Source: an uncultured delta proteobacterium (GTDB lineage Bacteria; Desulfobacterota; Binatia; UBA9968). Taken from it: DNA of 64,000 bases. Position numbers and translations under genes: made by a program. This document shows, in pieces, positions 34,309-61,819 of this stretch (within the stretch, counting starts at the first letter, position 1; each line of letters starts with the position of its first letter). Below the pieces are notes generated by a model, which worked only from the letters and a program-made list of their open reading frames with translations, did no database searches and was not told the DNA's origin. Location: the NCBI GenBank assembly GCA_963727625.1, contig CAVSHR010000012.1, positions 448,001 through 512,000 on the forward strand. Direction: 5' to 3'.

Positions 34309-35045
34309 TTACCCGGTCCCGCTGAAAAAGTTGATAGTTGATCGGGAAGACCGGCGCCACCGTCTTTGACATTGTAAAGAACCGCCCCCCCTATCGCCCT
34401 TTTTCGCAATATTTCCTGTGATATTAGTAGTCATCAGAGCGCTAGGAATTGGTCGGGTTTCGCCGCTAGAATGTGATTGTCGCTCCAACGTGGTTTGCGT
34501 CTTCAACAGAGCGGCTTTTTCCTGGCGTAGTCTCTAATGTGTTGGGCGGCATCCTCCAGCCATAACAGCCCTCGCTCCAGTGCTTCCGCCCATCGGCGGA
34601 GTTTAGCATCGGCATCTGTAATGGCCGCTGCGATCGTCTTTCCCTCCGCAGTGGGCTTTTGCTTTTGTGCCATCGCGGCTGTGGCCAACGCGATAAATCT
34701 TCGCACGTTGTCGGTACTTAGAATGCGCTTGTGGATCCTATCTAAGACAGCATTCTCTAATTTGTTTTTGTTTAAGAGCGGCGCGTCACAAGCGCTTTTG
34801 CCCTTTTGCAAATATGTTTGGCAGCTATAATAGTGGAAGCGACTGCTTTTGGCGGCGGTTCCAACGTAATGGTGTGACCACCGATCATATACGACGAGTT
34901 GGCTGAGAAGATAGTTTGTGCGGTGAGCATAAGAGTTGTACCAGGACAAAGGAACCCCTTCACGTTTCTTTTGGACCCAATCGAATAAACTTTTTTCGAT
35001 GATGGTCGGGTAGAAACCAAGGATCGTGAACGGCTCTTGGCAGCT
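34309..35045 (-). pseudogene. Decayed large serine recombinase (recombinase/zinc-ribbon/coiled-coil part only)
   Basis: YPTIIEKSLFDWVQ..YLLSQLV..GTAAKSSRFHYYSCQTY..C..LENAVL, then coiled coil. First CxxC eroded; catalytic resolvase domain absent. Confidence 0.75.
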
Positions 35046-35079
35046 GTATATTATGGGTGATTCGGTACGGATAGAGTTG

Positions 35080-35943
35080 CTAAATTTGGGAGACGCTATG
35101 TTGCCCCTGGTTCGAAAATTGCCATGTTACGAGAGATGCAGCGCCCGAGGACCAACCCTTCGCCCAAATATATTCGACGGACGACGGTATCGCTGGCCCT
35201 AGAACACCTTGGAGAGCCACCCAGGCTAAAAGTTCGTTGGACACTCCGGCTTTTTTAATGTTCTCGGGCGTAACCCTGCGTACAAACTCCTCGATGTTTC
35301 CCTCCTTTAGCAATCCCAGGAACTCCATTTCGAAGGCTGTGTCTACACTGCCCATCGTCGGACCTCCGACGTCACCATAGATACTTCCGCTAACCAGGAC
35401 CGCCACTTTGCCGGTATAACTGTCGTTGATGAACTGGCGAATATGCTGACCCAATTTATAGCACCTCCGAGCCGTCGGCCCTGGTTGCAGCATTCCACCG
35501 ATATGTACCGGCACTATCGGAAGATCCATGTGCGGGGTGACGAAATTTAGGGGTACCATAAACGCGTGATCCAATATAAAGTCTTCAGAATACGAAAAAT
35601 CGATCTCGTTCTCGATTCCATAGTGGAGCAGTCCACGCGCCAATCTCGTATCGACTTTAAGCGTGGCCTTTGGCACCCGCAAATTTTGGATTTCTTTTGG
35701 TGCCGGTCCTGCGCACGTGTCCGAGACCGCGAGGCAGAACATCGGATTGTTATGGTAGAAAAAGTTGGTCATGTGATCTGTAGTCAGAACAATAAGACAA
35801 TCCGGTGACGCCTCGACCAAGCATTTGTGCAGATAGTCGAAGCCCTGCAACAACCGGTGCCGGTCGTCATCGGATATACCCTCCGGGCGGGATGTGATGT
35901 TTGGATTGTGAGGAGCTGCAAGACCGAGAACTATCTTACCCAT
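35080..35943 (-). CDS. LigB-like extradiol dioxygenase, large subunit (atypical active site)
   Basis: APHNP, TDHMTNFF, LDHAFMVP, RCYKLG, NELLAW. The TGGxSH motif reads SGSIYG. Confidence 0.85.
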   Translation of the reverse strand: MGKIVLGLAAPHNPNITSRPEGISDDDRHRLLQGFDYLHKCLVEASPDCLIVLTTDHMTNFFYHNNPMFCLAVSDTCAGPAPKEIQNLRVPKATLKVDTRLARGLLHYGIENEIDFSYSEDFILDHAFMVPLNFVTPHMDLPIVPVHIGGMLQPGPTARRCYKLGQHIRQFINDSYTGKVAVLVSGSIYGDVGGPTMGSVDTAFEMEFLGLLKEGNIEEFVRRVTPENIKKAGVSNELLAWVALQGVLGPAIPSSVEYIWAKGWSSGAASLVTWQFSNQGQHSVSQI

Positions 35944-36195
35944 TTAGACCTCCCGTATCTGCTTCAAATACTCATCAGTTCGAATTCCCACCATGTGGGC
36001 GAATTGGAAGAGGAGCCACGGGTTCACCCCCATTTGGTAAAGGCTCTTTATATCTTTTGATAATATGGCCAAGCGCTCAGTATGACTCAAGTCATAAGGC
36101 TTCGCGATTGATTCTGGCTTAGCAAGATAATTTTCCCGGAGATCGAGATCGTTATGGATGTCAAAGAATAGCCTTTGGACTTGGTAAAGGCTCAT
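35944..36195 (-). CDS. LigA-like small subunit
   Basis: MSLYQVQRLFF...YDLSHTERLAI..D..LYQMGVNPWLL; abuts the LigB-like gene. Confidence 0.8.
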   Translation of the reverse strand: MSLYQVQRLFFDIHNDLDLRENYLAKPESIAKPYDLSHTERLAILSKDIKSLYQMGVNPWLLFQFAHMVGIRTDEYLKQIREV

Positions 36196-36503
36196 GGTAT
36201 TCCTCCAAGATTAAGATCGCTTACAGTATTAACGCCTCACATGAGTTTTTGGAAGCCTATTTGCTCTTGATGAAATTGCAGTCTTTGAAGTTCGGTAGCG
36301 TCTGAGCCTAAATCGAGGCAGCCCGAGGATCGATCCGGCGACTTCCTTCACCATCTGCTGCAATCACGCCCGGTTCCAAAAAATCTTCAAAGTCGCGATG
36401 CATTATCAGGGCCGCACTATTGAATCATCTCACAAATCACACTGGTTGAAGCATTGCACGACGCCAATCATTGGAATGAAATATCAAAAATGTGCCTTAC
36501 AGG

Positions 36504-37550
36504 TCAGAAACCCCATTTCCTCACTGCGGCCTCCGCTTTCTTCAATGCAGGTTGCAATTCCGGTCGTCCACGGACTTCCTGATAGGCGGCCGTGACCAAG
36601 GCGCCGCGCACCACCTCTTCGGGATCAATCGGTAGATCCAGTTGCTTGAGGTGAAGCATCTCTTGGATCGTTTCGACAACGTCAGTCCGGGAAACAGCGA
36701 GGTCGATGGGTAACGTCCAACCCTCGACTTTTTCCGGACTACTGAGAAGCTGCACGACTCGTTCTTCATCATTGTGGCTACTCTCGCGTAACCTGAGCTC
36801 GAGATCTCGGAGATATTCAAAGTGGTCACGGTCCCGCATAAACCAGAATGAGCGAATGATTGCGCGAAGAAAAGCAGAGAGTTCGGTTTCGCGCTCCTCT
36901 ATTGTCTGCTTTGTTGCGACGATAACTTTGCCAAGCCGCCCCCGCGACCGGTTTGTCTTGGGGTCCAGAATCGTAGAATAGCCCTCCGCCTCAAGCTGTT
37001 CCGAGAAAGGTGGCGCCGACGACACCATGTCCACTTTTCCCGATTTAAGCATCTCGACGTGCGCGGGATTACTTCGGTAAGCAAATGCTGGATCGTAAAT
37101 CCAGGAAACATCCTTTTCTGGGTTCAGCCCTGCCGCGCGCAATGCCTTCGATAGAGAGTACTGCATGAGATCGCCTGGCTCTCGAACACCGATTTTACAA
37201 CCGCGCAGCTGACTTAGTTCTCGAATACCTTTGCGAGCGTACCACTTCAGGTCCGGATTGCTCTCGTACCGCCAACCAGCAACCAAATAGAGGTCAACTC
37301 CTCTGGCGCGCTGGCAAATGATCGAGTCGATATTAACGGCCGTAACAATATCTAGCCCGTGATCCTTCACGGCCGCTTCTAATCCTTCAGATTCAAGAAG
37401 CCCAGGAACGAGTCCGCGACATTCATATTCGTAATTTAAAAACCCTTCCTCGCGAAAATAGCCTTGCTCCTCGGCAACCCGAACCGCTATTTGTTGCCCG
37501 ACATGGTAGTTGCTGTTTGCGACTAAAAGTGCCTGATCACGGTTACTCAA
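36504..37550 (-). CDS. NMT1/THI5/SsuA-fold protein without signal peptide
   Basis: AEEQGYFREEG, LRGCKIGV, AGLNPEKDV. TTG start after GGGAG. Paralog of 39553..40602. Confidence 0.78.
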   Translation of the reverse strand: MSNRDQALLVANSNYHVGQQIAVRVAEEQGYFREEGFLNYEYECRGLVPGLLESEGLEAAVKDHGLDIVTAVNIDSIICQRARGVDLYLVAGWRYESNPDLKWYARKGIRELSQLRGCKIGVREPGDLMQYSLSKALRAAGLNPEKDVSWIYDPAFAYRSNPAHVEMLKSGKVDMVSSAPPFSEQLEAEGYSTILDPKTNRSRGRLGKVIVATKQTIEERETELSAFLRAIIRSFWFMRDRDHFEYLRDLELRLRESSHNDEERVVQLLSSPEKVEGWTLPIDLAVSRTDVVETIQEMLHLKQLDLPIDPEEVVRGALVTAAYQEVRGRPELQPALKKAEAAVRKWGF

Positions 37551-38158
37551 GATACTCCCTAGAAGCTGTTACCTTATGACCCATCCAGTTTGTTGCTAAT
37601 TACCATCGCCCTCTTTCCGCGTGGTGTATAGCGACGGAAACCCTAGACATGAACACGTCAAAATCCGCAGTTCGCAAGTGTATCGTTATCTTTTTACGTC
37701 GTTGATTGCTCAAAACGAGACAAGCCATGCAAAACGCTAGCGCCCAAAATGAAAAAATGACAAACATAATATCGACTCGAACCAACTATTCAACGCTACG
37801 CTCGAGCCAATATGCAATTGCCGTCCTCATATCACCCTGCCGATTACCGGTCAACTTGATTTGACCGCTAATTTTGCTCTGTGTTTTTAGAAGATCAAGA
37901 AAATTATCGGTAATGAGGATTATGCGACCGAGGAGAGAAGTTTCAGAGGTCGGGCTCAAGAGAGGAGCTGTGGACGGGACCTTGTACTTTCTCATTCTGT
38001 TCATCGGTTTCTGTCTCGGGCTTGGGTTTGAAACCAGAAACCATAGTCGCTTGACATTATTTATCACTTGCACAATAGATGTTTTAGTGATGCGCGTTGC
38101 ATTTTTTTGGATAGAAGCCATTGGCACAGACGTCGTAGCACGCGCTTCGATTTGATGT

Positions 38159-39115
38159 ATGGCCGATATAGCCTTAACGCTTTCCTGTGGGGACTATGAT
38201 CGCACGCGCCCACTCATTGATCACACAGTTCCTACACCCGGCTTGGATCTCAAGGTCATGCCGGTGTCGTCATCCGAGCGTCACGCTCGGTTCGTCACCA
38301 ATTTTGAGTTTGACGCTTGCGAGCTGCAAATTGCCCTGTTTTTGGGTCTAAAGAGCCGCGGGGTGCCGATCACAGCGATCCCGGTTTTCCCTCATCGCCG
38401 ATTCAATCATAGCTGTGTCATGGTCCGTCTGGACTCCGACATCAGGCGTCCTGAAGATCTCCGCGGGCGCCGTGTCGGTATCCATGGACACTTCAATCCA
38501 ATCGCACTTTGGACACGGGGCGTGTTGCAGCATGAATTCGGGGTACCACCAAGCTCGATCCAATGGGTCGCTGATGGCGTCGATCTTGTGCCAGCCTGGT
38601 CACCCCCTTCCTGGTTACGCATCGAGCGCGCACCGGCCGGGAAGAAAATGCAAAGTTTAGTGGCAACCGGCAAGCTGGATGTCCAAATACTTTCCGATAG
38701 CGGAGCCGACGCCTTGGCCATGAACAAGGTCGTGCGAAGGCTATGGCCCAACTATCGCGAGGTGGAGGCGGACTACTATCGCCGCACTGGAATTTTCCCG
38801 ATTCGCGAAGTTGTTGCCGTCAAGGACGAAGTGCTTCAGCGCGATCCCGAGGTGGCGGTACTGCTGGTGCGCGCATTCGAAGATGCCAAACAGCGCGCCT
38901 ACCGTTATTGGGCCGACCACCGCCGCTCGTATCTTGCCTGGTACGGGGCCGAACAGGAAGAAGAAAGGGCCCTATTCGGGGCCGATCCGTGGCCCTACTC
39001 GATCGAGAAGAACCGAGTTGCCATTGAGACGCTGCTGGACTACGCGTTTGAGCAGGGACTCACTGAGCGGCGCCTCGACGTCAAAGAAATTTTTACCCCC
39101 GAGACACTTGATTGA
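38159..39115 (+). CDS. 4,5-dihydroxyphthalate decarboxylase-like protein (PBP2 fold)
   Basis: LTLSCGDYDRT, AIPVFPHRRF, TGIFPI, DPWPY, YAFEQGL. Substrate not established. Confidence 0.78.
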   Translation: MADIALTLSCGDYDRTRPLIDHTVPTPGLDLKVMPVSSSERHARFVTNFEFDACELQIALFLGLKSRGVPITAIPVFPHRRFNHSCVMVRLDSDIRRPEDLRGRRVGIHGHFNPIALWTRGVLQHEFGVPPSSIQWVADGVDLVPAWSPPSWLRIERAPAGKKMQSLVATGKLDVQILSDSGADALAMNKVVRRLWPNYREVEADYYRRTGIFPIREVVAVKDEVLQRDPEVAVLLVRAFEDAKQRAYRYWADHRRSYLAWYGAEQEEERALFGADPWPYSIEKNRVAIETLLDYAFEQGLTERRLDVKEIFTPETLD

Positions 39116-39552
39116 GAATCGGCGCCGCTCTTTCACTTTAATTCCCATTGATATCGTGGCGACTGACCGGCAAAAATCGTTTTTGAACTGATGAAAGATA
39201 AATCAGTTTGACAGTAACCGGGTTACGCGGTAAGGGAAATCTAGTCACAACGTTGACGGCCGAACCAATTATCTCGTGGCTTTTTTCGAGACGCCGCTCA
39301 TCACTTCGATTCGAGCTACAGATTCGGACAATGCAGCGAGGCTGCCCTAAAAAATCGGTTCAAAATCGTTTTCGAATTTGACACCCGCTTTTCGCGGCTT
39401 CTTATCGACGGCAAAGTACAAAAGCGTCCAAAACAAATAATTTCCATCCTAAAAAAGGTTCTCCAGCTACGCTACCAGATCACAGCGCAAAGCATGCATG
39501 ACTTCATCCTTGTGCGTGCGGCAAACAAATTGTTAGAAAAAGGAGATTCACA

Positions 39553-40602
39553 ATGAGCATTTTGGATCAACCTATTTTAATCGCCAATGTGAACTACCAC
39601 GTCGGCCATTGGGTAGCCATTTACCTCGCCGAGGAACAGGGCTTTTTCAAGCAGGAAGGTCTCGAACATTATGAGTATGAGCGTGGTGGACTCCTACCTG
39701 GGCCGTGGGAAGGCCTGGGTCTCGGTCTGGCAATCAAAGAGCATGGGGTTGATATCGCAACAGCGGTGGACACGGAATCGGCCATCTTGCAGAGGGCCCG
39801 AGGTGCCGATGTGTATATTGTCGGCGGTTGGCGCTACACGCCATTACTCAAGTGGTATGGTTCCAAACATATCACTGATATGGCTAAGCTCCGCGGCGGT
39901 AAAATCGGCGTCAGGGAGAGCTCAGCCGAGGGTGGAGGACTCGTTGAGTTCTTTATCGAGGAGGCCTTGAAAGAAGCTGGCGTCAACCCCCAAACAGAAG
40001 TGGAAAAGGTCCGAAACCGCGTGTTCGGTTACCGCAATAACCCGGCTCATATCGAAATGCTTCGGTCCGGAAAAGTCAATGCGATCACGTCTTCGCCCCC
40101 GTTCTCCGATCAACTCGAAAAAGAAGGTTATCCTGTCATCCTCGACCCCAACAAGGTATTTCCACGGCGCCCGGGTAAGGTTACCGTGGCGCCGCTAAGA
40201 ACAATCGAAAAACGGGGTGAGGAGCTTAAGGCTTATTTCCGAGCGATCATTCGGGCTTTTTGGTTCATGCGGGATCCAAATAGCTTCGAATATCTCCACG
40301 ATCTCGAAGCGCGGCTAAGGAAGCTCACGCATAACGAAGACGAGCGTAGCCTCTTTATTGCTTCAGCGCCTGATAGACTTGAAAGTTGGGCATTGCCTGT
40401 CGACGGATGCATAGAACGCCAGGCGCTCGGTAGAATCATTCAAGAGATGGTCAAGAGAGGCAGGCTGGAGAGCCCGCTTCCTGTAGAGGAAGTTTTCAGA
40501 GACACAGCGGTACAGGATGCTTACCGCGACGTCAGCAGCCGGATGAATCTTAAGCCTGCCTTCGACACCGCCATGGGGGCCGTGAAAAAATACGGTTTCT
40601 AA
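39553..40602 (+). CDS. NMT1/THI5/SsuA-fold protein without signal peptide
   Basis: AAAGGAG RBS; AEEQGFFKQEG, LRGGKIGV; no hydrophobic N-terminus. Confidence 0.8.
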   Translation: MSILDQPILIANVNYHVGHWVAIYLAEEQGFFKQEGLEHYEYERGGLLPGPWEGLGLGLAIKEHGVDIATAVDTESAILQRARGADVYIVGGWRYTPLLKWYGSKHITDMAKLRGGKIGVRESSAEGGGLVEFFIEEALKEAGVNPQTEVEKVRNRVFGYRNNPAHIEMLRSGKVNAITSSPPFSDQLEKEGYPVILDPNKVFPRRPGKVTVAPLRTIEKRGEELKAYFRAIIRAFWFMRDPNSFEYLHDLEARLRKLTHNEDERSLFIASAPDRLESWALPVDGCIERQALGRIIQEMVKRGRLESPLPVEEVFRDTAVQDAYRDVSSRMNLKPAFDTAMGAVKKYGF

Positions 40603-40865
40603 GAAACTGTAAAATGATCTCGTTTGTGAGCGTTCAACAGCAGCTAGAACCCTTTATACATGATCTCGGTCATGCGCTCATGGGCGACTCGGATATCGCC
40701 ACTCGGGCAAACGCCGAAAATACCGGGCCCTAGAAGTCTTCGGAACGAAAGCGTGCGCACGATCGCTTACGTCATTGATTACTAACGATTGAAGAGACAA
40801 GGCGCCGTCGACGCAATTTTGCAAGAAGCCGCGCGCCATCTCTTAGAAAAGTCTATCGCAGCTAG

Positions 40866-40935
40866 TGTAAAAAATACAGGTTTCAATCTGTCACGCCGGA
40901 AGCTAAGTTGTAACGTAGGTGCTGTAACGTATACA
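40866..40935. promoter_or_regulatory. Paired TGTA-N5-TACA palindromes (candidate operator)
   Basis: TGTAAAAAATACA (40866-40878) and TGTAACGTATACA (40923-40935), upstream of the first ABC operon. Confidence 0.45.
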
Positions 40936-40966
40936 TTGATCCAACAGACAGAAAGGAGTGTCTCCA

Positions 40967-42118
40967 ATGATTTCAATGGCTGACCGTACAGTTTCTTTCT
41001 TTGTGTTCGCACTCGCCCTGGCGATCTCGATGGCGGTCTACTCGCCAACGTGCGGAGCGGCGAATCCTCTAGCGGATCTCGTAGCGGCTGCTAAAGGAGA
41101 GGGCGCCTTAAATGCCGCTGTTGTCTCGAGCTTACATGGCAAAGCTCACCCAAAACTTGCCGCGGCTTTCAAGAAGCGCTTCGGGCTTGATGATATTGAC
41201 CTAACGATTACAAACGTAACAAGCTCGACGCACTACGGCAGAGCTGCGGCTGCAACTCGGGCTGGTGCGGTGCCGACCTATGATACAATTGAAGGATCTG
41301 AGCTCAGCAATATTCAGCTCATCGGGATTGGCGGTACGCAGACAATTGAAAATTGGCAGTCCTTATTGGCCGGAATCAACCCGCTGGTGCACTCGGGAAA
41401 GGTTCGCCCTCAACAGATCAGCCCAAAGCCATTTACCGGTCACGGTTTCAAGTACATGTCGCGGGTGAAGGCATTATTATACAATCCCAAACTTATCTCT
41501 GAATCCGAATTGCCTAAGACGCATGCTGACCTCGGCAATCCAAAATATAAAGGTATGTGGACGCAGCCTCCGTGGACGTCCCATTGGGAGGTCGGCCCCC
41601 TGATTTTTCCCGATTTAGGCAAGGAAAAATGGGTGGACGTGGTACGGAAAGCTGGGAAAAACGCCCGCGCCGTGCAGTCAGCGTCGAAAGGTGTTCAGCG
41701 AGTCCTTTTGGGTGAGTTCGCCTTCGGGTTGGCTAACACTTACGAGGGGCTACGAGCGCAGGATCGAGATTCGGACTCCCCGATCGCAGTTGCCTATTTT
41801 GCGGATTACAACCAAACCAATTCGGGCTATTACGTCGTTCGGAAAGGGGCTCGGCACCCTGCGGCCGGGACCCTTTTTGCTTTGTGGATGGGAACGCCCG
41901 AAGCCAAAAGCATCTGGCAACCGGTGACCTATGGCACACAGTTTTTGTGGGGTGAAAGTAAGCTGGATCGTACCGTCAGAGAGCTGATCAAAAAGAGCGG
42001 GGCCCGTATCGTTGATTATCTGGAGAGTGACGAAAGTTTGGCGCTGTTAAAGTGGTACGGCACTGGAGAAGGGAGAAAATATAGCAAAGCCCTGGCCCAA
42101 GCTATAAGGGGACAGTAG
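40967..42118 (+). CDS. ABC substrate-binding protein (FbpA/AfuA-like cluster)
   Basis: Signal peptide, AAAKGEG, LLYNPKL, DLGNPKYKG, ARHPAAGTLF. ATG 40967 follows AAAGGAG. Confidence 0.85.
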   Translation: MISMADRTVSFFVFALALAISMAVYSPTCGAANPLADLVAAAKGEGALNAAVVSSLHGKAHPKLAAAFKKRFGLDDIDLTITNVTSSTHYGRAAAATRAGAVPTYDTIEGSELSNIQLIGIGGTQTIENWQSLLAGINPLVHSGKVRPQQISPKPFTGHGFKYMSRVKALLYNPKLISESELPKTHADLGNPKYKGMWTQPPWTSHWEVGPLIFPDLGKEKWVDVVRKAGKNARAVQSASKGVQRVLLGEFAFGLANTYEGLRAQDRDSDSPIAVAYFADYNQTNSGYYVVRKGARHPAAGTLFALWMGTPEAKSIWQPVTYGTQFLWGESKLDRTVRELIKKSGARIVDYLESDESLALLKWYGTGEGRKYSKALAQAIRGQ

Positions 42119-42187
42119 AGAAGTGGAAACCCACGCTGGTTTTGGCCTTCCGCTGGCTCGGCCAGCGGTCTGTTAATCGGTATTTTA

Positions 42188-44032
42188 ATGTTCGAACACA
42201 AGAGCACTGACATGCATGGAGTCGAGCAGACTACGGCCAGAGACAAAGTCGACCGGATTCGCGCATGGTGGAGACCGAGGCTCGATTCCGACACTCTCGT
42301 GAATGGGTTACCTCTGGCATGTTCCTGGTTCATTTCATCACTTGTGCTGGCTCTAATGACATTTGTGTTTTATATGACGTTTGTCCCCGGACTGCCGACT
42401 GAGGCAGGGTGGACATTGAAACACTGGGCAAGTATTGCCACGCCACGCATGCTGACGGAAGTTCTGCCGAATACGTTAATCGTTGGGTTCGGCACGATAC
42501 TTGTGGTGACATTCTTCGCCTTGCCTCTGGCGTGGCTGCTCAATCGCACCTCTTTGCCCTTCCGAAACGTCTTTATCACTTTGATGGCTTTGGTGGTGGT
42601 TATACCCGGTTTTATCAAGGCCATGGGCTGGATTCTGCTCGTCAACGACCGGATTGGCCTCGTGAATAAAGCCGTAGCCAACTTATTGGGTTTGAAAACC
42701 GTCCCTTTGACAGTTGTCAATAATCCTTTCGGTATGGCATGGGTCATGGGATTGATGCTTACCCCAACGATGTTCTTCTTGATTTCGGGTCCCATGCGTG
42801 CGTTGGATCCGTCTTTGGAAGAAGCTGCAATGGTGTGCGGGCTCAATCGGTGGCGATTGATTCGTCGAATCAGCTTTCCTCTTGTTTGGCCGGGGACGCT
42901 CGCGGGAATCATATATATTTTTATGACGTCCATCTCCACCTTTGAAGTACCTGCGCTCCTGGGTGCGGCGAGCGGAAAGGTTCCCGTGTTGGCGACGGAA
43001 CTCTTTTATGCGGTGAGGCCAAGCGGCATCGAGATGATTGAACCCGCCTATGGTGCGGCTGGGGTGTACGGCACGCTGATCGCCGTTCCAAGCGTGGTCG
43101 CTCTTTACTGGTACCTGCGGCTGTTGAGCCGAGCCAGGGCGCACGAAGTGATTACTGGCAAAGGTTATAGGCCGCAAGCGTTTGACTTAGGGCGATTTAA
43201 ATGGGTGGCGCTGACGTTTGTCGTACTTTATCTCTTCCTTGCAGCTATCTTACCGTTGCTTGTGTTAATCTGGGCGTCGTTATTGCCGATCCTCCAGATG
43301 CCCTCGGCCGCAGCCTTTTCTAAGATCAACTTCTCGAACTACAACGATCTGATTCCCGCTCTCGGTGGCGCATCGGTTGTTTGGAATACAATCTTATTGA
43401 TGGGATGGGTGTCGGTTCTGGTCCTGTTTTTTAGCGTGATGATTTCTTGGGTCGTCGTCCGCGCGCGGGTCAGATTCCACAGCTTAATTGATTTAATCGC
43501 CATGGTGCCACACGCAATTCCGGGACTGGCGTTCGCGTTCGCACTGATGATGTTGGCGCTACTTTTGTCACGTTGGTTTCCATGGCTGCCGTTTAGCGGA
43601 ACCCTGGGGATAATCGTGATCGCGGGACTAATAAACCGATTGTCGTATGGCACTCGGGCGACGAACGCGGCCTTAATCCAAATCCAGGTGGATCTGGAGG
43701 AGTGTGCTCGAGTCTGCGGGCTTCGCAATCTTTCGATTATACGGAAGATTATTATTCCCTTGGCGATGCCGACTCTTCTCTTTACCGGTTTATGGACGGC
43801 CCTTCTGACGTTTCGTGAGGTGACCATGGCATTGTTTCTTTCCGAAAGCCGCAACAGAGTGCTGTCCGTCAACATCTGGTACCTTTGGCAAAATGGGAAT
43901 CTTGGAATTGCTGCAGCCGGGTCTGTACTGATGGTGGTTGTCGCGGGAGCCCTGATGCTAATCATCCTGTCATTTAGCGGTCGCCAGTTCGGCGATCAGG
44001 GACGTGCGGGTTTAAGCGTGTCGCGAATCTAA
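42188..44032 (+). CDS. ABC permease, fused double domain (FbpB-like)
   Basis: Two EAA loops (DPSLEEAA; DLEECARVCG), FEVP, VITGKGYRP. Confidence 0.9.
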   Translation: MFEHKSTDMHGVEQTTARDKVDRIRAWWRPRLDSDTLVNGLPLACSWFISSLVLALMTFVFYMTFVPGLPTEAGWTLKHWASIATPRMLTEVLPNTLIVGFGTILVVTFFALPLAWLLNRTSLPFRNVFITLMALVVVIPGFIKAMGWILLVNDRIGLVNKAVANLLGLKTVPLTVVNNPFGMAWVMGLMLTPTMFFLISGPMRALDPSLEEAAMVCGLNRWRLIRRISFPLVWPGTLAGIIYIFMTSISTFEVPALLGAASGKVPVLATELFYAVRPSGIEMIEPAYGAAGVYGTLIAVPSVVALYWYLRLLSRARAHEVITGKGYRPQAFDLGRFKWVALTFVVLYLFLAAILPLLVLIWASLLPILQMPSAAAFSKINFSNYNDLIPALGGASVVWNTILLMGWVSVLVLFFSVMISWVVVRARVRFHSLIDLIAMVPHAIPGLAFAFALMMLALLLSRWFPWLPFSGTLGIIVIAGLINRLSYGTRATNAALIQIQVDLEECARVCGLRNLSIIRKIIIPLAMPTLLFTGLWTALLTFREVTMALFLSESRNRVLSVNIWYLWQNGNLGIAAAGSVLMVVVAGALMLIILSFSGRQFGDQGRAGLSVSRI

Positions 44033-44167
44033 TGCACCCGTTGGGAAATGTGAACAACTGTCCCCGAGCCCGTAAGTCTTTTACTGATGTGGCCATTTCG
44101 ATTAGAGCTGTCGTGGCGGCTTGCGTTCGCTAAATTCCCCTACTTAAAACTTGAATAATTTATTAAG

Positions 44168-45268
44168 ATGGTCGGGATCTATCAGCTGCGAAAAAATTTC
44201 CGGATGCGAACTGGTGAAGTCCCTGCTCTAAGAGGGGTCGACTTGGAAGTCAAAGAAGGGGAGATATTTACGATGCTCGGCCCGTCAGGGTGTGGGAAAA
44301 CCACCATCCTTCGGTGTATCGCCGGGTTGGAGAAAGCGGATACAGGAAAAATCACCATTGATGGGGAAGTCGTTTTTGACGCGGATGCTAACGTGATGGT
44401 TCCTGCGTATGGGCGGGGTGTCGGCATGGTGTTTCAGTCCTACGCAATCTGGCCGCACATGAGTGTGTTTCAGAATGTTGCTTTGCCACTCCTGGAGGGG
44501 ACATTCAGGATCCCAAAGTCGGAAGTTAAGTCTAGAGTCAGTCAAGCGCTGTCCTTGGTGATGTTGGAAGGATTGGGGGAACGACCGGCCACATTGCTCA
44601 GCGGTGGTCAGCAACAGCGCGTTGCTTTAGCGCGGGCATTAGTTTATAGGCCAAAACTTTTACTGTTGGACGAGCCTTTGAGCAACCTCGACGCGCGTTT
44701 GAGAGCTGATATGCGATTAGAATTGCGTGAGCTCGTGGAAACGCTGAACATGACGTCGGTGTACGTGACGCATGACCAAGATGAGGCCTTGGCGCTTTCC
44801 GATCGGATTGCTGTGATGGAAAAGGGTATCATACTACAAATCGGCACGCCACGGGAGATTTACACGACGCCGGCAAACGACGCAGTCGCGTGTTTTATTG
44901 GGGAATCGAACCTGTTATCGGTCACGGTACAATCTGAGCGAGAAGGAGACGGATACCGACTGGTTAACAGTGCACTTGGCCTGATGTCATGTCGGATTCC
45001 AGGATCCATAGGAGTCGGAGCGGTGGTTACTGTTATGTTTCGCCCAAATGACGTCAGGTTGGAAAGAGAAGAAGCCGGCCCTGAGACGAACATGTACCAA
45101 GGATTCGTCAAACGGACTGTTTACCTTGGTAGCCGACTACGCTGTGAAGTTGAAGTCGCGTCCACAAAGATTTTGGCCGAGGTCCCGTCGTCTCGTGACA
45201 TCAAGGAGCGCCAGGCAGTAAGCGTGCACATTCCACCGGATCAAATATGCGTTCTAGCCGGTAACTGA
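44168..45268 (+). CDS. ABC ATPase (FbpC/PotA-like) with TOBE domain
   Basis: [39 protein letters not shown]. Confidence 0.92.
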   Translation: MVGIYQLRKNFRMRTGEVPALRGVDLEVKEGEIFTMLGPSGCGKTTILRCIAGLEKADTGKITIDGEVVFDADANVMVPAYGRGVGMVFQSYAIWPHMSVFQNVALPLLEGTFRIPKSEVKSRVSQALSLVMLEGLGERPATLLSGGQQQRVALARALVYRPKLLLLDEPLSNLDARLRADMRLELRELVETLNMTSVYVTHDQDEALALSDRIAVMEKGIILQIGTPREIYTTPANDAVACFIGESNLLSVTVQSEREGDGYRLVNSALGLMSCRIPGSIGVGAVVTVMFRPNDVRLEREEAGPETNMYQGFVKRTVYLGSRLRCEVEVASTKILAEVPSSRDIKERQAVSVHIPPDQICVLAGN

Positions 45269-45429
45269 ACTTTCTCAACTCGCATCCAATAATGCGAGTT
45301 TTTCGAAGGCAAGATCTGGCAACCTGCGTAAATACGACGCTGAGAATATCAAACGCTTGTTAAGGTAAGGGCGCATGTGCAATAAAGCATAAGTCCAGAC
45401 ATTCTGTAATTCGTCACGAGGAGAACCGT

Positions 45430-45810
45430 ATGGAACCCAAATTTGTTTTTCATGAGCCACCGAGGCGTTATTCCAAAGCTTGCGTCTACGGTGAATTCAA
45501 CTTTCTCGCCGGTGAAGATTCCAAAGATCCGACGACGCAGAAGGTGCAGGGAAACACCGTTGCCGAGCAGGCAGAATATCTATTTCGCAATATGAAGACT
45601 ACTCTTGAAAGCCTTGGGAGCTCGCTCACCAGCGTCATTAAGACGACCGTCTACCTGAAAGATCCGCGAGACCGGGCGAACTATCAAGAGGCCCGCGTCA
45701 AGTACTTGCCACAGACCCCTCCTAGCACGTTGATCATGGGGGTTCAGCTTGCCGAGCCGGAGATGCTGATTGAGATTAACGCGATCGCCGTTATGCCAGG
45801 AGCGAAATAA
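45430..45810 (+). CDS. Rid (YjgF/YER057c/UK114) family protein
   Basis: YSKA, EQAEYLFRN, VIKTTVYL, PPSTL, EMLIEINAIA. Confidence 0.85.
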   Translation: MEPKFVFHEPPRRYSKACVYGEFNFLAGEDSKDPTTQKVQGNTVAEQAEYLFRNMKTTLESLGSSLTSVIKTTVYLKDPRDRANYQEARVKYLPQTPPSTLIMGVQLAEPEMLIEINAIAVMPGAK

Positions 45811-46079
45811 GCCGGCGCAGATGATAAGATTGACAACGGCGAAGGCGTGCGTCCATAAAGAAACAATGAAACTCGACTCGTCAGGTGGTACGAGCAGTTT
45901 TTGCAAAACTGCGTGCGAAAACAACAGCAAGTCAGTGGTCGCTCAAGTGGCACCAGCGGAACGACGGCGGAAATATATGGATGCGGCGGTGTGGGCCATC
46001 CGCGCGGAAGAACCGACTGTCAGCGGCGCGTCGGAGCAGCAGACTTAATCACGCCACAAGATTAAAACAAAGGGAGGGA

Positions 46080-47304
46080 ATGATGGGAATCTTGCGTGAG
46101 GTCAGACAGGCCAGTATTGGCCTTGTTACGTGGCAAGTTCTAGTGTTTTTCTTGGTATTTTTTCTCATGCCATGGTGTATCTTGGCTTGGGCGCACCGAC
46201 GCTGTTTGCGGGGGAGGCGGCCGCTGCAGCAGAGACTCCTTCTAAGGGGAAACGGGCCGTCGATGAGTTGGTTGCAAAGGCGAAACAAGAAGGAGAGCTT
46301 GTTGCCACCATACAGTCGAGCTGGAACAAGGGGTTGATTCAGCCCCTCACTGACGCATTCAGAAAGCGCTTCGGGTTGGATATTAAGGTAACAGTCTCAA
46401 ATGTCAATTCGGCCCGGCATTTCCCAGTGGCGATTGCCGAGATTAGGCGGGTGCCCCGGCAACTTACGATGTTGTGCAGGGGGACGATGCCGAGACCATG
46501 CAAATCGTAGGAGCTGGCGCGACTCATAAAGTCGAGAACTGGGTGACACTGCTCGCCGAGATCAATCCTTTGGTGCGATCTCGGCAAGCGTAGACCGGAC
46601 GAGATCAGTCACGGACCGTTTAGAGACCATTCATTCATGTTCATGGCCAACGTTAAGCAGCTTATCTACAACACGAGACTGATCTCTCAAAAAAATCTGC
46701 CAAGAACGCATAGGGACCTTGCTAATCCCAAGTACAAGGGCAAGTTTGCGCAGCCGCCGTGGACCTCTCATTGGGAAATTGCGCCCGCCGCGTTTGATAA
46801 TTTCGACAAGAAGCAGTGGCTGGAGGTGGTGCGAAAAGCCGGCAAAAACACCGGAGCAGTGCTCGGTGAGTCTTCCGCGGTGCAGCGGGTGGTCCTCGGA
46901 GAGTTCGCCTTTGCTCTAGCGCAGGATCGATACGTACGGCAGATTCTCGCCAAAGATCCGAAGGCGCCGATCTCCTCGCGGTTTTTTGACGACTACAATG
47001 AACTCAATCAAGGGTGTATTATTCCGTCCGCACCCGGGCGCGCCATCCCGCCGCAGGCACTCTATGGGCGCTGTGGATGACCACGCCTGAGTCGGAGAAG
47101 ATCTGGCAGCCGAGCGATCTGCAATCCGTACCCTATGGTGATAGCCAACTCGATCATGAGTTCAGACAGAGTATAGAGAAGTCAAAAGCGAACGTGGTAG
47201 GGTTTTTGGACAACAAGAAGACCATCGAGCTGCTGAATTGGTATCGGACGGACGAGGGACGCAAATATTTAGACGCCATGGCTCGGGCTATTAGAGCGGA
47301 ATAG
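46080..47304 (+). CDS. Second ABC substrate-binding protein (multiple frameshifts)
   Basis: Fragments match 40967..42118 (AKQEGEL, KRFGLD, NPKYKG..QPPWTSHWE, ARHPAAGTL, EGRKY). Confidence 0.75.
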
Positions 47305-47354
47305 TCGGCGTTGAAGAGCCTTATGCTGGTGCGGCGACCTGGGTACGCCGAGCC

Positions 47355-49138
47355 GTGAGTTTACTCTTTAAGCAAAGGGAGCGCACGGGCGGCATGGATG
47401 CTATTCCGCTTATATGCTCGTGGTCGATTCTTTCGGTCATCATTGCCCTCGTCGCGTTTGTTCTGTACATGACCTTCGTGCCGGGCCTGCCCACCGAGCC
47501 AGGCTTTACGTTGCGGCACTGGTCCAACGTGTTCAGTTCGCGTCTGCTCACCAGGGTTATTCCGAATACAGTCATTGTGGGTTTCGGCACCATTTTCATC
47601 GGCGCGTTTTTCGCTTTGCCGCTGGCTTCGCTGCTCAACCGGACGACTCTCCCATTTCGTACAATCTTTACGACCATAATAGGCATTGTGCCTGTCATTC
47701 CGGGCTTCATACTGGCCATGGGGTGGATCATGCTCTTGGACGAGCGGATCGGCCTGATCAACAATGTTGCCGCGAGTGCTCGACCTTCGAGCATCGCGTT
47801 GAGCGTTAAAGACAGCCCTTGGGGAATCGCATGGGTATTAGGGTCGATATTGACCCCCGCCGATCTTCTTTTTGGTCGCCGGTCCTTTGAGCCGCATCGA
47901 CCCCTCTCTAGAAGAGGCGGCGAAGCGCTACCGCATGAGACATCTCACGATCCTTCGGCGCGTGACTTTGCCCTTGGTATCGCCTGGAAATTCTCGGCGG
48001 GATCATATACACGTTTCTGACAGCGGTGTCGATCTTCGAAATTCCAGCGCTGTTAGGCGCTGCGAGTGGAAGGGTCCCGGTCCTTGCAAGCGAGATCTTT
48101 TACTCGGTCAGGCCGGGGGGGCCAATGACGGCCACATTCGCATACGGGACGGCCGGGGTTTACGGAATGTTGCTGGCTATACCGAGTCTTGTAGCGTTAT
48201 ATCTTTATCTTCGAGCTCTTCATCGGGCGGAGCGTTATCAGGTGATCACCGGAAAGGGCTACCGAGCTCGAGAAATCGATCTTGGTCGTTTCGCCTGGGT
48301 TGGAGTCGTATTTGTTGTTCTTTACTTGAGCTTGGCCGTGGGACTACCCATACTGATCCGGGTATGGGCATCGCTCATGCCAGTGTTGCAAATGCCTTCT
48401 CGGGAAGCGCTCGAAAAACTTAGTTTCGAAAACTATCATGGCCTGCTGGAAGGGTTGGCAGGAGTAGACGTCGTTTGGAATACTGTCCTGGTAGTGGTCT
48501 GCGTATCTCTGCTCGTCATTTTCTTCAGCTTCATGATTTCATGGGTCGTGGTGCGGAGCCGAGCCCGGTCACGCAAGACGGTTGATTTGCTGGCGATGTT
48601 GCCTACGCGATTCCGGGCCTAGCGTTTGCGTTCGCACTGGCGATGATTGCGGTTCTGGCCTCCCGATGGCTTCCCTGGTTGCCGCTCTACGGAACCCTTG
48701 GCATCATCGTGATCGCCCATCTCATCAACAGGGTGCCCTATGGGACGCGCGTAATGAATTCCGCTCTGGGCCAGGTGCATCGCGATTTGGAAGAGATTGC
48801 CCAAGTTTGCGGCACGAAGACGCCGACGATCATGAGAAGGGTGGTCTTGCCGCTGGTCAAACCTTCGGTAGTCTATCTGGCTGTTTGGACGGCCATGCTA
48901 AGCTTCCAGGAGGTGACGATGGCGCTTTTTCTTTCAGGGCCGCACAATACCGTACTTTCGGTAAGTATCTGGTCACTTATGGGAAGCCGGCAGCCTGGGG
49001 ACGGCTGCCGCCGCAGCCGTTGCGATGGTGTCTATCATGGGAGTGTTGATGTTCGGTGTTCTGAAGATTGCGGGGCGTGCAGCAACGGGGCTCATCAGCC
49101 GAGGTGCCGCCGTGCTGCGTTCGTCTGAAGCGCGATGA
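47355..49138 (+). CDS. Second ABC permease (multiple frameshifts)
   Basis: Fragments match 42188..44032 (YMTFVPGLPTE, FEIPALLGAASG, VITGKGYR, EVTMALFLS). The repaired stop overlaps the next ATG. Confidence 0.75.
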
Positions 49139-50224
49139 TTCGAGTCATCAACCTCCACAAGGATTTTTTCACCCGAAATGCAAGCCAAGCGGCGGTCCGG
49201 GACGTTAATTTTGAAGTCAATGAGGGCGAAATTTTCATGCTCTTGGGACCCTCCGGCTGCGGCAAAACCACGACCCTACGTTGTATTGCCGGCCTGGAGA
49301 CTCCCGACGACGGAGAAATCTGGATCGATGACAAACTAGTCTTCGCGAACCAAGGTCAAATTATCGTTCCGGTTTATAGACGCGGCGTAGGAATGGTGTT
49401 CCAATCGTATGCTATCTGGCCGCATTTGACGGTATTGAAAACGTAGCGTATCCTCTGGTTTATGGAATCAACAAGGTCTCGAAGGGGCAAGTAGAGAACT
49501 GTACGAAAAGCTCTGCCTCGGTCGGTTTAAACGAATTTGAAGATTGTTTTTAGCGCCCTTGCTCAGCGGGGGCCAGCAGCAGCGAGTCTCGTTGGCCCGG
49601 GCTCTAGTCTATGAGCCGAAAGTATTGCTGCTGGATGAGCCCCTCAGTAATCTTGATGCCAAGCTGCGCACAGAAATGCGCGTGGAACTCAGGGCTTTCG
49701 ACAAAAAGACTAAAGATCACCGCCATTTACGTAACCCATGACCAAGAGGAGGCGCTGGTATTATCAGACCGCGTTGCGGTCATGCATGCGGGACAAATCC
49801 GGCAAATCGGAACTCCACGCGAGATCTATATCAATCCGAAAAGTGACGTGGTCGCCGGGTTTATAGGTACGGCCAATCTGCTGCAGGCGAGGGTCGAACG
49901 ACTACCGTTGGATGAGAAAGACGGCACATTGACTAGGCTTTAGGAAAGCTGAAGTCATCTGCCTGCTTCACTGTCTGTCGGACAGACCGTGACTGTTATG
50001 TTTCGGCCCGAGGACGTTATCATTGGCGGCGACTCGTCACGCAGCGGCAACAATTTATTCCCCGCCACTGTAGAGGACGCGCTGTTCGTGGGTAGTCGAT
50101 TTCAATGCCAAGTATCTATTAATACGCACAGAATTCATGGGGAGGTTTCCAAAACTCGGGTGGTAGAGGTGGGCCAGACGTCATGGTTGAGATTCCGCCG
50201 CATATCATTCACCTGCTCCTGTAA
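49135..50224 (+). CDS. Second ABC ATPase (multiple frameshifts)
   Basis: [30 protein letters not shown] and TOBE spread over several frames. Confidence 0.78.
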
Positions 50225-50303
50225 CTTTACATATTTCAAGCAGGCCGAGATTGGCGCCATCCACAAATTGAGGCGTCTTGACCTACTGAATCACGTCGAT
50301 ATT

Positions 50304-50756
50304 TCAAACTGAATGATCCCGAGAAGAGCGCATGGGAAGTATCAACGTACAGCGACCAGTAAGAATTTTTTTATCGTCTTGGTTCCCTCCTTGAAGTTCA
50401 CAAATGACCCATGGATCCGCGATGTTGGGCGACTTTTCCGCGATCCGCGCACTAAAGCGCATCATATCTCCTTCAAACGTGGAGTAGGTGTGCCGAACGC
50501 TAATTTTTCTCAACCATTCGCGGACGGATCGAATCGGTCAACATCGAATCAGTAGGGCCTGCTGGTAAGCTCTCGCTTGCGATGTTAATGTCTTTAGCCC
50601 GTTATGCTCGCGGACATGGTCTCTATCATAGTGAAGGCGCTGCCAGTTCTCCGTAAACTTGCCCAGCGCACAGCGTCAAATTGTAAGTCGGCCATGTTCG
50701 CGCGCCGGGATGGAGTCGCCGACGGCAACATCGTCTAAATAAACGGATTGATTCAC
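50304..50756 (-). CDS. MaoC-like dehydratase subunit (frameshifted)
   Basis: VYLDDVAVGDSIP..., ENWQRLHYDRD..., STFEGDMMRFSARI, stitched across frames. Confidence 0.65.
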
Positions 50757-50784: not shown

Positions 50785-51891
50785 TCAGCTGCATTGGGTA
50801 CCTTGGTACCAGGGAGCTAAAAAGTATTTCTTTAGAATTTGCTCGTTGTGCTCTCCGAGCCTAGGCGCCGGGCTCAGCCGAGTTCCCGTGACGCTGGCAA
50901 TCGCTCCTTGAGGAAAAAGTATCTTGCCATACTCGGGATGATCCATCTCGCTTAAAAAACCGCGCGCAATGAGTTGCGGATCGCTGACAAGGTCGAGCGG
51001 CGTGGAGACAGGGGAAGCGGGAAAGTGTAGGCGCTGACCCTGCTCGACCAACTCCGTTTTCGTGAAGCGCTTGGCCCAGTTATCCAGCCGCTGCATGATG
51101 AAATCGCGGCGCTTATGCTGATTTTCTTCTTCGGCCAGCGATGGATCGTTCCTTAGCTCGGGGTCCTGCACCCACTCGACGAATTTCGCCCAGCGGCCTG
51201 GCCGGTGAATTTGACTGATCACCCAGTGGCCGTCTTTACACGGCATCGCACCGGAGACCGCGGTGATTGCACCTCGGCTGCCGCGCCGCTCGGTGATCGT
51301 TCCGGAGAAACTATACTCAACCATCGCTTGCTCGACGAAAGAGGCTAGGGAGTCCCGCACCGAAACAGTGGCGACTAAACCGCGGCCCGAACCTTTGCGC
51401 ACCAGCAGAGCGGCAGCAGTGGCAACGGCGGCATAGATCCCGACCGCAAGATGAGGAACGTGACCACCCAATGTCACCGGCGCGCGATCGGGATGACCGG
51501 TAAGCGACATTAGCCCCGAGCGCGCCACCGCACACAGCTCCGGCGCGTCATCGACGATCTTGGTCAGAACGAGATTTGGATTGGCTGCATGACAGAATTG
51601 TTCGTCGAAAGGCGTGTTGGCCAGCAACACGTCGGCATGGCCGAGTAGATTGTGCAAGATCTTTTTCCGGCATCTGACTCGATATCGACAGTCACACCCT
51701 TCTTACCGGAGTTTAAGAACTGATGATACGCGCTGTGCTCCAGATTTTGCTTGTCGCGTAAAAAACGGCGGGAGTCGCCTAAGCTCGTCACCTTCTGGTG
51801 GTTCGACGCGAATCACTTCGTGCCCTTCTTCGGCGAAAAGCCGGGCTGCGTAAGCTCCGGTAAGCGAAGTTAAATCGATAACACGGAGCAT
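50785..51891 (-). CDS. CaiB/BaiF family III CoA-transferase subunit (frameshifted, no catalytic Asp)
   Basis: RVIDLT..GAYAARLFA, VIRVEPPEGD, LNSGKKGV, PCKDG, APRLGEHN. Confidence 0.8.
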
Positions 51892-52437
51892 CTAGTTTCG
51901 ATCCTGGACTACACCAGACAGCTTTTTTTCTGGAAAGACAGCGAGCGTATGCCGGCGACGGAGTACGATTTGTTGCTTAAAATTCAACACCTGTTCCTCC
52001 TGGTCGATGTATATTCCCAAGCCCGCCTTACCCTGGCGCGCGACGATGTCCGTGATGGAGCTTTGCGTGGACAATGGGTCGCCAAGGTAGGCTGGCTGCA
52101 GCTATTTAGTTTCGGAGCCAGCGTTACGTACGTTGGTGTATCCGGCGGGTAAGGGGGAGTTGACGCCGCAGGTCTGTTGGGTCTGTGCTTGCTCGCTCGG
52201 TACCTTCTTTAAAACTAAATGGCACCCAGCCGACGAGGAGCGGCGGCAGTATGCGGCCGCGATAGCCGGCGCGGCGTGCGTAGTCAGTGTCCAACCACAA
52301 TGGGTTGGCATCGTCGGTGGCGTCGACGTAGCGGCGAATGTCCGATGCACTGATGACTTCGAGGGATCGCAAAGGTGTTCTGCGACCGATCCAGCCACCC
52401 AGCTCCGGCGTGACGATAGTTTCGATAGACCAGTCAT
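51892..52437 (-). CDS. MaoC/FAS1-like dehydratase N-terminal-type subunit (frameshifted)
   Basis: IRRYVDATDDANPLW..YA..AGY..ILPP, NAGSET, ITDIVARQGKAG. ATGA overlap with the upstream gene. Confidence 0.72.
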
Positions 52438-60522: not shown

Positions 60523-60537
60523 GGCGGTCGACCGCCA

Positions 60538-61632: not shown

Positions 61633-61819
61633 AAAATCGTCTCCTTAGGTATTGAAATGACCCTGCGCTGCTAATCGAAAGTTATTCTGAGACCCCTTGG
61701 CTTGTCAAGGCAAAACCGTGGCGCGTATCGCCCCTTGTCAGCGCGAATCCTTCGAATAAATTTGTGCCAAATGTTTCTTTCTTATGGATCGATCGTTTCG
61801 AATCACAAGGCCGCCGGCT

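Follow-up and report, generated by a model that had tools for sequence, protein, structure and literature searches.

What should be made of proteins that carry the fold of periplasmic binding proteins, lack any export signal and are encoded beside an extradiol dioxygenase? The question is raised by a stretch of 64,000 nucleotides (nt) from an uncultured delta proteobacterium (contig CAVSHR010000012.1, positions 448,001 to 512,000, of assembly GCA_963727625.1), which we call the window and whose genome we call G000. There, two divergently arranged genes of the NMT1/SsuA fold, named NmtA and NmtB here, enclose a third gene of PBP2 fold and adjoin a LigAB-like pair. A sequence-only reading of this DNA had proposed that they encode cytoplasmic enzymes or ligand carriers that act on an aromatic or heterocyclic substrate together with the LigAB-like pair. 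We find this interpretation partly supported: NmtA and NmtB represent a real, uncharacterized and probably cytoplasmic protein family, and both the absence of a leader throughout the family and its conserved linkage to the dioxygenase genes stood, whereas catalysis is suggested by analogy to known enzymes and the structural and profile rankings tie or favor binding proteins. All coordinates are positions within the window, and genes were taken from a list of longest open reading frames (ORFs) combined with Pfam and NCBIfam scans. The five genes of the cluster lie where they had been placed before (L-numbers denote loci or metagenome contigs, P-numbers public proteins):

35080..35943, minus strand: LigB-like beta subunit of a class III extradiol dioxygenase, atypical, 287 amino acids (aa); PF02900, 112.6 bits
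35944..36195, minus strand: LigA-like small subunit, 83 aa, directly upstream of LigB here and in related loci; PF07746, 39 bits
36504..37550, minus strand: NmtA, leaderless protein of NMT1/SsuA fold, A-type, 348 aa, TTG start; PF13379 and PF09084 above Pfam cut-offs
37551..38158: divergent intergenic region between NmtA and the PhtD-like gene, collinear with L031
38159..39115, plus strand: homolog of 4,5-dihydroxyphthalate decarboxylase (PhtD/OphC type, "PhtD-like" below), leaderless PBP2 fold, 318 aa; PF09084, PDB 9jp7 at E 1.8e-48
39117..39531: segment in place of a 1.29-kb signal-peptide NMT1 gene of close relatives (blastn of L031 against the window)
39553..40602, plus strand: NmtB, leaderless protein of NMT1/SsuA fold, B-type, 349 aa; PF09084 and PF13379 above Pfam cut-offs

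A family of NMT1-fold proteins without a leader

NmtA and NmtB are 51% identical over their full length (E 8e-129), and their description as divergent paralogs of the NMT1/SsuA fold is borne out by the Pfam NMT1 matches and by an AlphaFold2 (AF2) model of NmtB (pLDDT 91.3, pTM 0.89). All six motifs that had been picked out by eye, NYHVG, GWRY, F(A/G)YRxNPAH, FWFMRD, HN(D/E)(E/D)ER and K(W/Y)GF, are present in their alignment. Neither protein has an export signal. The stop-to-stop frames comprise 354 codons for NmtA and 366 codons for NmtB with in-frame stops 6 and 17 codons ahead of the respective starts, so that both ORFs are already maximal and a hidden upstream leader is impossible. The first strand of the NmtB model spans residues 8-12, so that the ORF begins 7 residues ahead of it, and the ribosome-binding sites are good, as had been noted (AAGGAG ahead of the NmtB ATG and GGGAG ahead of the NmtA TTG). 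The NMT1 gene at 61820-62827, to which the pair had been contrasted, does bear a hydrophobic leader. NmtA and NmtB thus show neither the signal peptide nor the lipobox of transport substrate-binding proteins (SBPs) of the NMT1/SsuA type, and they score 43.5 and 29.8 bits against NCBIfam SsuA_fam (TIGR01728), far below its cut-off of 163.5.

The same holds beyond the window. A protein search with NmtB gave 519 proteins at E 0.001; among the 120 matches listed, 118 have at least 320 aa, nearly all of them 346-350 aa, and the names, where given, are ABC transporter or nitrate/sulfonate/bicarbonate substrate-binding protein, the automatic annotation that the sequence-only reading had foreseen. As a leader test we used the maximal 12-residue hydropathy within the first 45 residues with a threshold of 2.0, which is a heuristic and not SignalP. 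This value was reached by none of 71 full-length family ORFs (70 loci and the window; maximal ORFs of 337-387 aa) and by none of the 118 close NmtB matches, compared to 56 of 69 neighboring pNMT1 and all 11 neighboring pNMT1b proteins, as we call the signal-peptide (periplasmic) NMT1 proteins encoded beside family genes. Among distant representatives with 32% identity or less it was reached by 6 of 39. Homologs that generally carry signal peptides, which had been named as the finding that would speak against a cytoplasmic role, were therefore not what we encountered. In a quick tree, the A, A2, B and B2 types formed one clade (99% support) and the S2 subfamily a second one (99%) inside the same 94%-supported group, the neighboring periplasmic NMT1 proteins made up a separate clade (95%), and a few signal-bearing relatives sat deep among leaderless rows. 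Judged by hydropathy and by this tree, the whole close family is leaderless and forms a clade apart from the periplasmic NMT1 proteins next to it.

The family is small, since only 365 matches at E 0.001 and 45 at 1e-30 were found among 1.84 billion cluster representatives, and a search of the ESM Atlas returned only NMT1-named clusters of Binatota and Myxococcota. It is carried at 70 loci from species-representative genomes, mostly metagenome-assembled genomes (MAGs) labelled Binatia or delta proteobacterium, where NmtB orthologs are 80-93% identical to the window's. Within the phylum of the window, 2 of 301 sampled genomes including G000 encode it (E 1e-30), and G000 itself has four copies, of which two are NmtA and NmtB and the others, with 32-33% identity, lie on C2 and C9. 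A search for fused forms of 612-2000 aa at E 1e-10 was negative, although as evidence this is weak. The public protein P0019 (608 aa), in which a C-terminal stretch of periplasmic NMT1 protein precedes a full family member, was rejected as a true fusion and reads as a run-on across a 4-nt gene overlap. Our literature searches, the sole basis for this negative, found nothing on the family in print.

Family members were also compared to the neighboring periplasmic NMT1 paralogs, to which they are 22-26% identical. The beta1-alpha1 loop of the family reads xYHxGH and is one residue longer than in those paralogs, an insertion of eight residues (GL(L/I/V)PxxxE) follows strand 2 in the beta2-alpha2 loop, the hinge strand ends in GWR, and a loop of domain II contains a four- to five-residue insertion, FGYRNNPAH, that is not found in S2. 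The C-terminal helices bear WFxRD and LExRLR...ER and are followed by a tail of about 25 residues ending in G(F/Y). From the secondary structure of the NmtB model and the established topology of the fold, we infer that the distinctive loop and hinge features would lie in cleft-facing loops. Among 40 diverse members there is no exception at A26 and R234, and conservation reaches at least 90% at H16, H19 and E264. A count of 21 invariant columns in the family and 2 in the periplasmic paralogs was discarded as evidence, as the two sets differ in divergence (52% and 39% mean identity).

Further NMT1-like proteins abound in G000, with 35 matches to NmtB alongside several LigB-like and Rieske paralogs. 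The S2 subfamily (31-35% identity; motif CYH...GWRN...WFxRD...WGY; L003 at G000:C2:786662-790696, L004 at G000:C9:182803-186843, and L049-L082) usually precedes a gene for a TctC-type receptor. Usually nearby are a GlmL-like gene (methylaspartate mutase accessory) and genes for two CoA-transferases, for an enoyl-CoA hydratase and for an F420/LLM oxidoreductase; we noticed no gene for a mutase.

A conserved cluster around a dioxygenase and a decarboxylase homolog

The gene between the two paralogs had been assigned to the dihydroxyphthalate decarboxylase type, and its product indeed aligns over residues 4-317 with residues 24-344 of 4,5-dihydroxyphthalate decarboxylase (PDB 9jp7). Its motif CGDYDRTRPL shares the DYDRTRPL part with 9jp7, and C10, D12-R15, P18 and L19 are invariant among nine members of the decarboxylase clade. 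By these similarities, the PhtD-like protein is a clear homolog and can be counted as a member of the 4,5-dihydroxyphthalate decarboxylase family. Its substrate may nevertheless be another compound, because identity to other clade members is only about 36-40% and G000 encodes at least six further PhtD-like paralogs at 37-39% identity (at least seven decarboxylase-type copies together with the window's own). BLASTP showed no direct similarity between NmtA and the PhtD-like protein. At the level of profiles, hhalign of the NmtA/NmtB family against the decarboxylase family covered 275 columns (97.4%, E 9e-12), which amounts to full-length homology and places Y15/H16 of the former opposite Y13/D14 in the invariant CGDYDRTRPL motif of the latter. 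We found no literature on the 9JP7 structure, as searches on the structure of dihydroxyphthalate decarboxylase or on a binding-protein fold gave pathway papers only. According to one review, the decarboxylase is a step of the 4,5-dioxygenase route of phthalate degradation, in which it follows a Rieske dioxygenase and a dehydrogenase (PMC13040137). The gene set of related loci, with Rieske, dehydrogenase and PhtD-like genes, resembles this route.

The LigAB-like pair deserves the label "atypical" that it had been given. H12, H57, H126 and E237 of the LigB-like protein align to H12, H61, H127 and E242 of PDB 1b4u_B, three of which (H12, H61 and E242, equivalent to H12, H57 and E237 here) we take to be the 2-His-1-carboxylate metal ligands. 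In 12 of 12 clade members, however, the histidine of the GG(L/M)SHQ motif found in DesB, MhpB and LigB (H195 of 1b4u_B), presumably the general base of LigB, has given way to SGSxxGD (G190). Every LigB-like or LigA-like match in NCBIfam lies far below its cut-off.

Conservation of the cluster was examined at the 70 loci and the window, with Pfam scans of the 38 recurrent neighbor clusters (singleton neighbors left out). The consensus order begins on one strand with PhtD-like, family B2, pNMT1, LigA and LigB. Beyond LigB, family A2 and pNMT1b are encoded on the other strand, pNMT1 and family B come next, and the series closes with pNMT1, a Rieske oxygenase and a beta-hydroxyacid dehydrogenase, which again lie on the other strand. 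Genes of the A and A2 types adjoin LigA or LigB in all six cases, with gaps to LigA of 56-308 nt. The 16 B-type genes are accompanied within 5 kb by LigB (10), Rieske (8) or PhtD (7) genes, and all but the one in the window (15 of 16) adjoin a signal-peptide NMT1 gene. B2-type genes (n = 16) have an adjacent pNMT1 gene in 14 cases, with PhtD (5), a split thiamine pyrophosphate (TPP) enzyme resembling sulfopyruvate decarboxylase (6) and TctA (5) nearby. S2 genes (n = 33) lie next to TctC in 17 cases, within 5 kb of a GlmL-like gene in 19 and near CoA-transferases in 10.

The linkage can also be seen from the side of the dioxygenase. Out of 68 metagenome contigs collected via the LigB clade, 20 have at least 2.5 kb upstream of LigA and could be assessed; a family gene was found within 2.5 kb in 16 and a B-type gene downstream in 3 more (19/20 in total), while the remaining contig, L129, had none in 3.5 kb. 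The NmtA/NmtB family is thus almost always co-located with this LigAB clade, and the five genes listed above make up the conserved core of a cluster that recurs in MAGs labelled Binatia and in metagenomes from soil. Co-occurrence with permeases versus dioxygenases had been named as a comparison to make, and it came out for the dioxygenase: the LigAB link is kept, and no SsuC-type permease is found among annotated neighbors. An intact SsuC/NrtB-type permease with its ATPase is absent from the window and from the 38 recurrent neighbor clusters (singletons were not scanned). The broader claim that the window has no SsuC/TauC-type permease at all stands for intact genes, but has to be qualified by a 161-aa BPD_transp_1 fragment (48643-49128) and by fused double permeases at 42188-44032 and 58741-60522. 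Because NmtA and NmtB lack an export signal and are kept in a conserved cluster with a decarboxylase homolog and a dioxygenase, they probably work inside the cell.

Some B2 genes are found away from the dioxygenase (L019, L021, L025, L027, L032 and L042), where they lie between two signal-peptide NMT1 genes and beside TctABC and the split TPP enzyme. The latter scores highest against sulfopyruvate or phosphonopyruvate decarboxylase, though under the cut-off, and may hint at sulfonate or phosphonate chemistry at these loci.

In the window, the cluster appears to have been rearranged. Comparison by blastn with L031 (84-88% nucleotide identity) shows collinearity over 35105-39116 and 39532-40609; a segment of 415 bp stands in place of the 1.29-kb pNMT1b gene of L031, and the pNMT1, Rieske and dehydrogenase genes that lie downstream of NmtB in L031 are missing. 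A trio of Rieske, pNMT1 and dehydrogenase genes with 44-50% identity is encoded elsewhere in G000 (C4:632-636 kb). The left breakpoint falls inside the last ~25 nt of ligB, and LigB comprises 287 aa in the window compared to 276 aa in relatives. A fragment of a serine recombinase (34503-34949, minus strand, 148 aa, zinc-ribbon domain PF13408) lies beside this breakpoint at 35080-35105, and together with the end of ligB it looks like a rearrangement scar. GC content drops from 0.58-0.60 to 0.49-0.53 across the cluster. All five core genes are under purifying selection, with dN/dS values of 0.05 for LigB (against L031), 0.09 for LigA, 0.21 for NmtA, 0.07 for the PhtD-like gene and 0.06 for NmtB. 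As to expression, a search of sequencing runs gave one DNA run that contains a small share of the words and no RNA run.

Downstream of NmtB, four genes follow on the same strand:

40958..42118, plus strand: solute-binding protein of SBP_bac_8 type with signal peptide, 386 aa, at the head of an ABC importer; PF13416, hydrophobic leader in the translation
42188..44032, plus strand: fused double ABC permease, 614 aa; PF00528 in two stretches, PhnU2/FbpB-like by NCBIfam, below cut-off
44168..45268, plus strand: ABC ATPase with TOBE domain, 366 aa; PF00005 and PF08402, PotA/PhnT2-like by NCBIfam
45430..45810, plus strand: RidA/L-PSP family protein, 126 aa; PF01042, 77.6 bits

The importer (40958-45268) plausibly belongs to the system, judging by its homologs, because L096 and L097 carry a gene for an SBP_bac_8 protein 74% identical to the window's right after LigB, with a fused permease of 73% identity in L096. 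Near family genes, fused Fbp/PhnU-like permeases recur together with SBP_bac_6/8 proteins of their own. The RidA/L-PSP gene is an uncertain member of the system; it lies on the same strand and its recurrence is weak (L113, 28% identity). Pattern scans for promoters and terminators over 34900-46000 gave matches at chance level.

G000 has 103 permease-domain matches, many of them in fused frames of 570-640 codons. The contrast gene at 61820-62827 adjoins an SBP_bac_6 protein and a fused double permease (region 58741-62827, minus strand), not an SsuC-type permease, and it may be this fused type that cooperates with NMT1 binding proteins in G000. Long clean ORFs are lacking at 46000-50500: the 161-aa ORF at 48643-49128 (plus strand) covers permease-domain positions 46-148 only, and two neighboring ORFs have no Pfam match; these ORFs may be gene remnants. 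A CoA-transferase III ORF at 50785-51657 (minus strand, 290 aa) covers profile positions 136-366 only and appears N-terminally truncated. It adjoins a full-length paralog (52434-53651), a LysR regulator (53924-54871) and a thiolase-like gene (55123-56283).

Enzymes or receptors

The interpretation that we prefer, at about even chances, is that the cluster is the core of a catabolic system in which a LigAB-like non-heme-iron dioxygenase, a decarboxylase of PhtD/OphC type and two leaderless NMT1-fold enzymes in the cytoplasm act on anionic aromatics. NmtA and NmtB would then remain in the cytoplasm as enzymes that need no cofactor and convert an anionic aromatic or heteroaromatic compound, which would be taken up with the help of periplasmic NMT1 paralogs in relatives and of the ABC importer in the window. 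Their likely chemistry would be the loss of a ring substituent (CO2, sulfinate or nitrite) or a related proton-transfer step, which would serve to prepare or process what the decarboxylase and the dioxygenase act on. By analogy with the enzymes discussed below, such a function is plausible.

Several observations weigh against catalysis. A comparison by Foldseek with DszB, THI5 and SsuA had been suggested; all three matched the NmtB model, but enzymes were not separated from binders. The top rank went to ThiY (4e-15), and below it came 3qsl, THI5, the CmpC regulatory domain, SsuA, TauA and DszB, in this order, and VIA-align Z-scores tied as well, with THI5 at 20.3, SsuA (3uif) and ThiY both at 20.1 (19.5-20.1 for SsuA and ThiY overall), CmpC/NrtC at 17.5-18.5, DszB at 17.8, TauA at 16.9 and 9jp7 at 13.6. 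The fold shared with DszB and THI5 therefore says nothing about function, because non-enzymes score equally. The family profile is even nearer to the CmpC/NrtC cytoplasmic regulatory domain (E 2.2e-16), 3qsl (2.6e-15) and SsuA (1.6e-13) than to the enzymes THI5 (5e-10), 9jp7 (1.3e-4) and DszB, where the match covers residues 156-228 only and is not significant (0.037). Nor does the quick tree place the family next to the decarboxylase clade, which is a long branch with 32% support. H16, H19 and R234 also occur in distant signal-bearing relatives (P0260, P0262 and P0210) and may serve in ligand binding rather than in catalysis. At the level of operons, the upstream pNMT1 gene overlaps the B-type gene by 4 nt in 10 of 11 cases and the gaps between B2 and pNMT1 genes are -35 to 18 nt in 11 of 14, an arrangement that would fit a partner in transport or sensing, too. 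Other subfamilies, finally, are found in contexts that are not aromatic (TctC, GlmL-like gene, CoA-transferases, and the TPP enzyme resembling sulfopyruvate decarboxylase).

Much of this would be expected if NmtA and NmtB were non-catalytic receptors of the cytoplasm that, like the NrtC/CmpC domain, sense or hold an imported compound and either modulate a transporter or regulator or pass the compound on to the enzymes, an explanation to which we assign a smaller but substantial chance. The family profile matches the CmpC/NrtC domains best and binding proteins next, the genes are tightly coupled to those of periplasmic binding proteins in relatives, uptake systems (tripartite tricarboxylate transporters, TTT, and Fbp-like ABC importers) recur beside all subfamilies, and H16, H19 and R234 are shared with exported relatives. 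NmtA and NmtB stand alone, though, as the weak evidence from the search for fusions also indicates, and no NrtB/NrtD-type transporter or DNA-binding domain was seen among annotated neighbors. Sensing of one and the same ligand fits poorly because each cluster encodes two or three paralogs whose cleft loops are unlike those of the adjacent periplasmic paralogs.

A third explanation confines itself to the A-type protein, which might be a third subunit or substrate-delivering partner of the LigAB-like enzyme and take over the role of the missing histidine. The invariable position of A and A2 genes next to LigA or LigB and the loss of the His195 equivalent throughout the LigB clade would agree with this, but L016, L022 and L023 have LigAB with only B2 or B genes and no A-type gene, and the gaps to LigA leave no translational coupling between the two genes; we consider it unlikely. 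That NmtA and NmtB are ordinary periplasmic SBPs with a missed leader or another export route, or else decaying relics, is very improbable: the Pfam NMT1 matches, the database names and the loss of neighboring genes from the window could be cited for it, but the closed frames, the non-hydrophobic N-termini of the whole family, SsuA_fam scores far below cut-off and dN/dS values of 0.06 (NmtB) and 0.21 (NmtA) speak against it. Hitch-hiking export via Tat was rejected, because the leaders of adjacent periplasmic paralogs (few sequences) are Sec-like and not twin-arginine.

If we return to NmtA and NmtB as enzymes, a bolder version can be put forward tentatively: the leaderless clade would be a new family of cofactor-independent cytoplasmic enzymes that shift or remove ring substituents of aromatic acids, each kept together with a periplasmic paralog for the same compound and feeding a LigAB variant without the general-base histidine. 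Catalysis would lengthen the still short list of enzymes that derive from binding proteins (DszB, THI5, OphC and DnpB), it would mark an uncharacterized pathway for aromatic acids in Binatia-labelled soil lineages, and the LigAB variant would challenge the accepted need for a general-base histidine. Should each enzyme truly share its operon with a periplasmic paralog for the same compound, a series from binding protein to enzyme would be preserved side by side. Cytoplasmic receptors, on the other hand, would correspond to the NrtC/CmpC sensor domain, but as proteins of their own. In any case, family members in public databases run into the hundreds and go by the name "ABC transporter substrate-binding protein" although export by a classical leader is impossible, and expression and screening can start from a well-delimited set of five to ten genes in the cluster.

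Comparison with known systems

The periplasmic binding proteins SsuA, TauA and ThiY share Pfam families and fold with NmtA and NmtB, which differ from them by the lack of a leader and of a cognate neighboring permease and by their own insertions and invariant residues in loops predicted to lie at the cleft. As a cytoplasmic NMT1/NrtA-like module, the C-terminal regulatory domain of NrtC/CmpC from cyanobacterial nitrate and bicarbonate ABC transporters is the best solved relative by profile, but it is fused to an ABC ATPase, whereas NmtA and NmtB stand alone with no NrtB/D genes nearby.

Among enzymes, the desulfinase DszB and the HMP-P synthase THI5 belong to the same fold class and are cytoplasmic enzymes that derive from binding proteins. 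The NmtB model superimposes on THI5 over 288 residues and on DszB over 282, with a root mean square deviation of 4.8 in both cases, at 14-17% identity. We take Cys27 of DszB and Lys62/His66 of THI5 to be catalytic residues (C27 and H66 are named in PDB titles). The LigAB, DesB and MhpB class III extradiol dioxygenases have the LigB and LigA Pfam domains and the metal-ligand positions in common with the pair described here, in which, by contrast, Gly-Asp replaces the "SH" histidine across the whole clade and LigA comprises only 83 aa.

A parallel by description is DnpB from the 2,4-dinitrophenol catabolism of Paraburkholderia sp. KU-46, which is reported to be a purified, nitrite-eliminating enzyme of PBP2 fold with homologs that without exception carry the annotation nitrate ABC substrate-binding protein (10.1101/749879). 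It is likewise a cytoplasmic PBP2-fold enzyme of an aromatic catabolic operon and caught in the same annotation trap, but it works with a hydride transferase, and none was seen at the NmtA/NmtB cluster. A solved counterpart is represented within the cluster itself: 4,5-dihydroxyphthalate decarboxylase (9jp7) is a leaderless PBP2/NMT1-like enzyme of aromatic acid catabolism, and its family shares remote full-length homology and the C-terminal helical part with NmtA and NmtB, which carry NYHVGH or NYHVGQ in place of CGDYDRTRPL and fall into a clade of their own.

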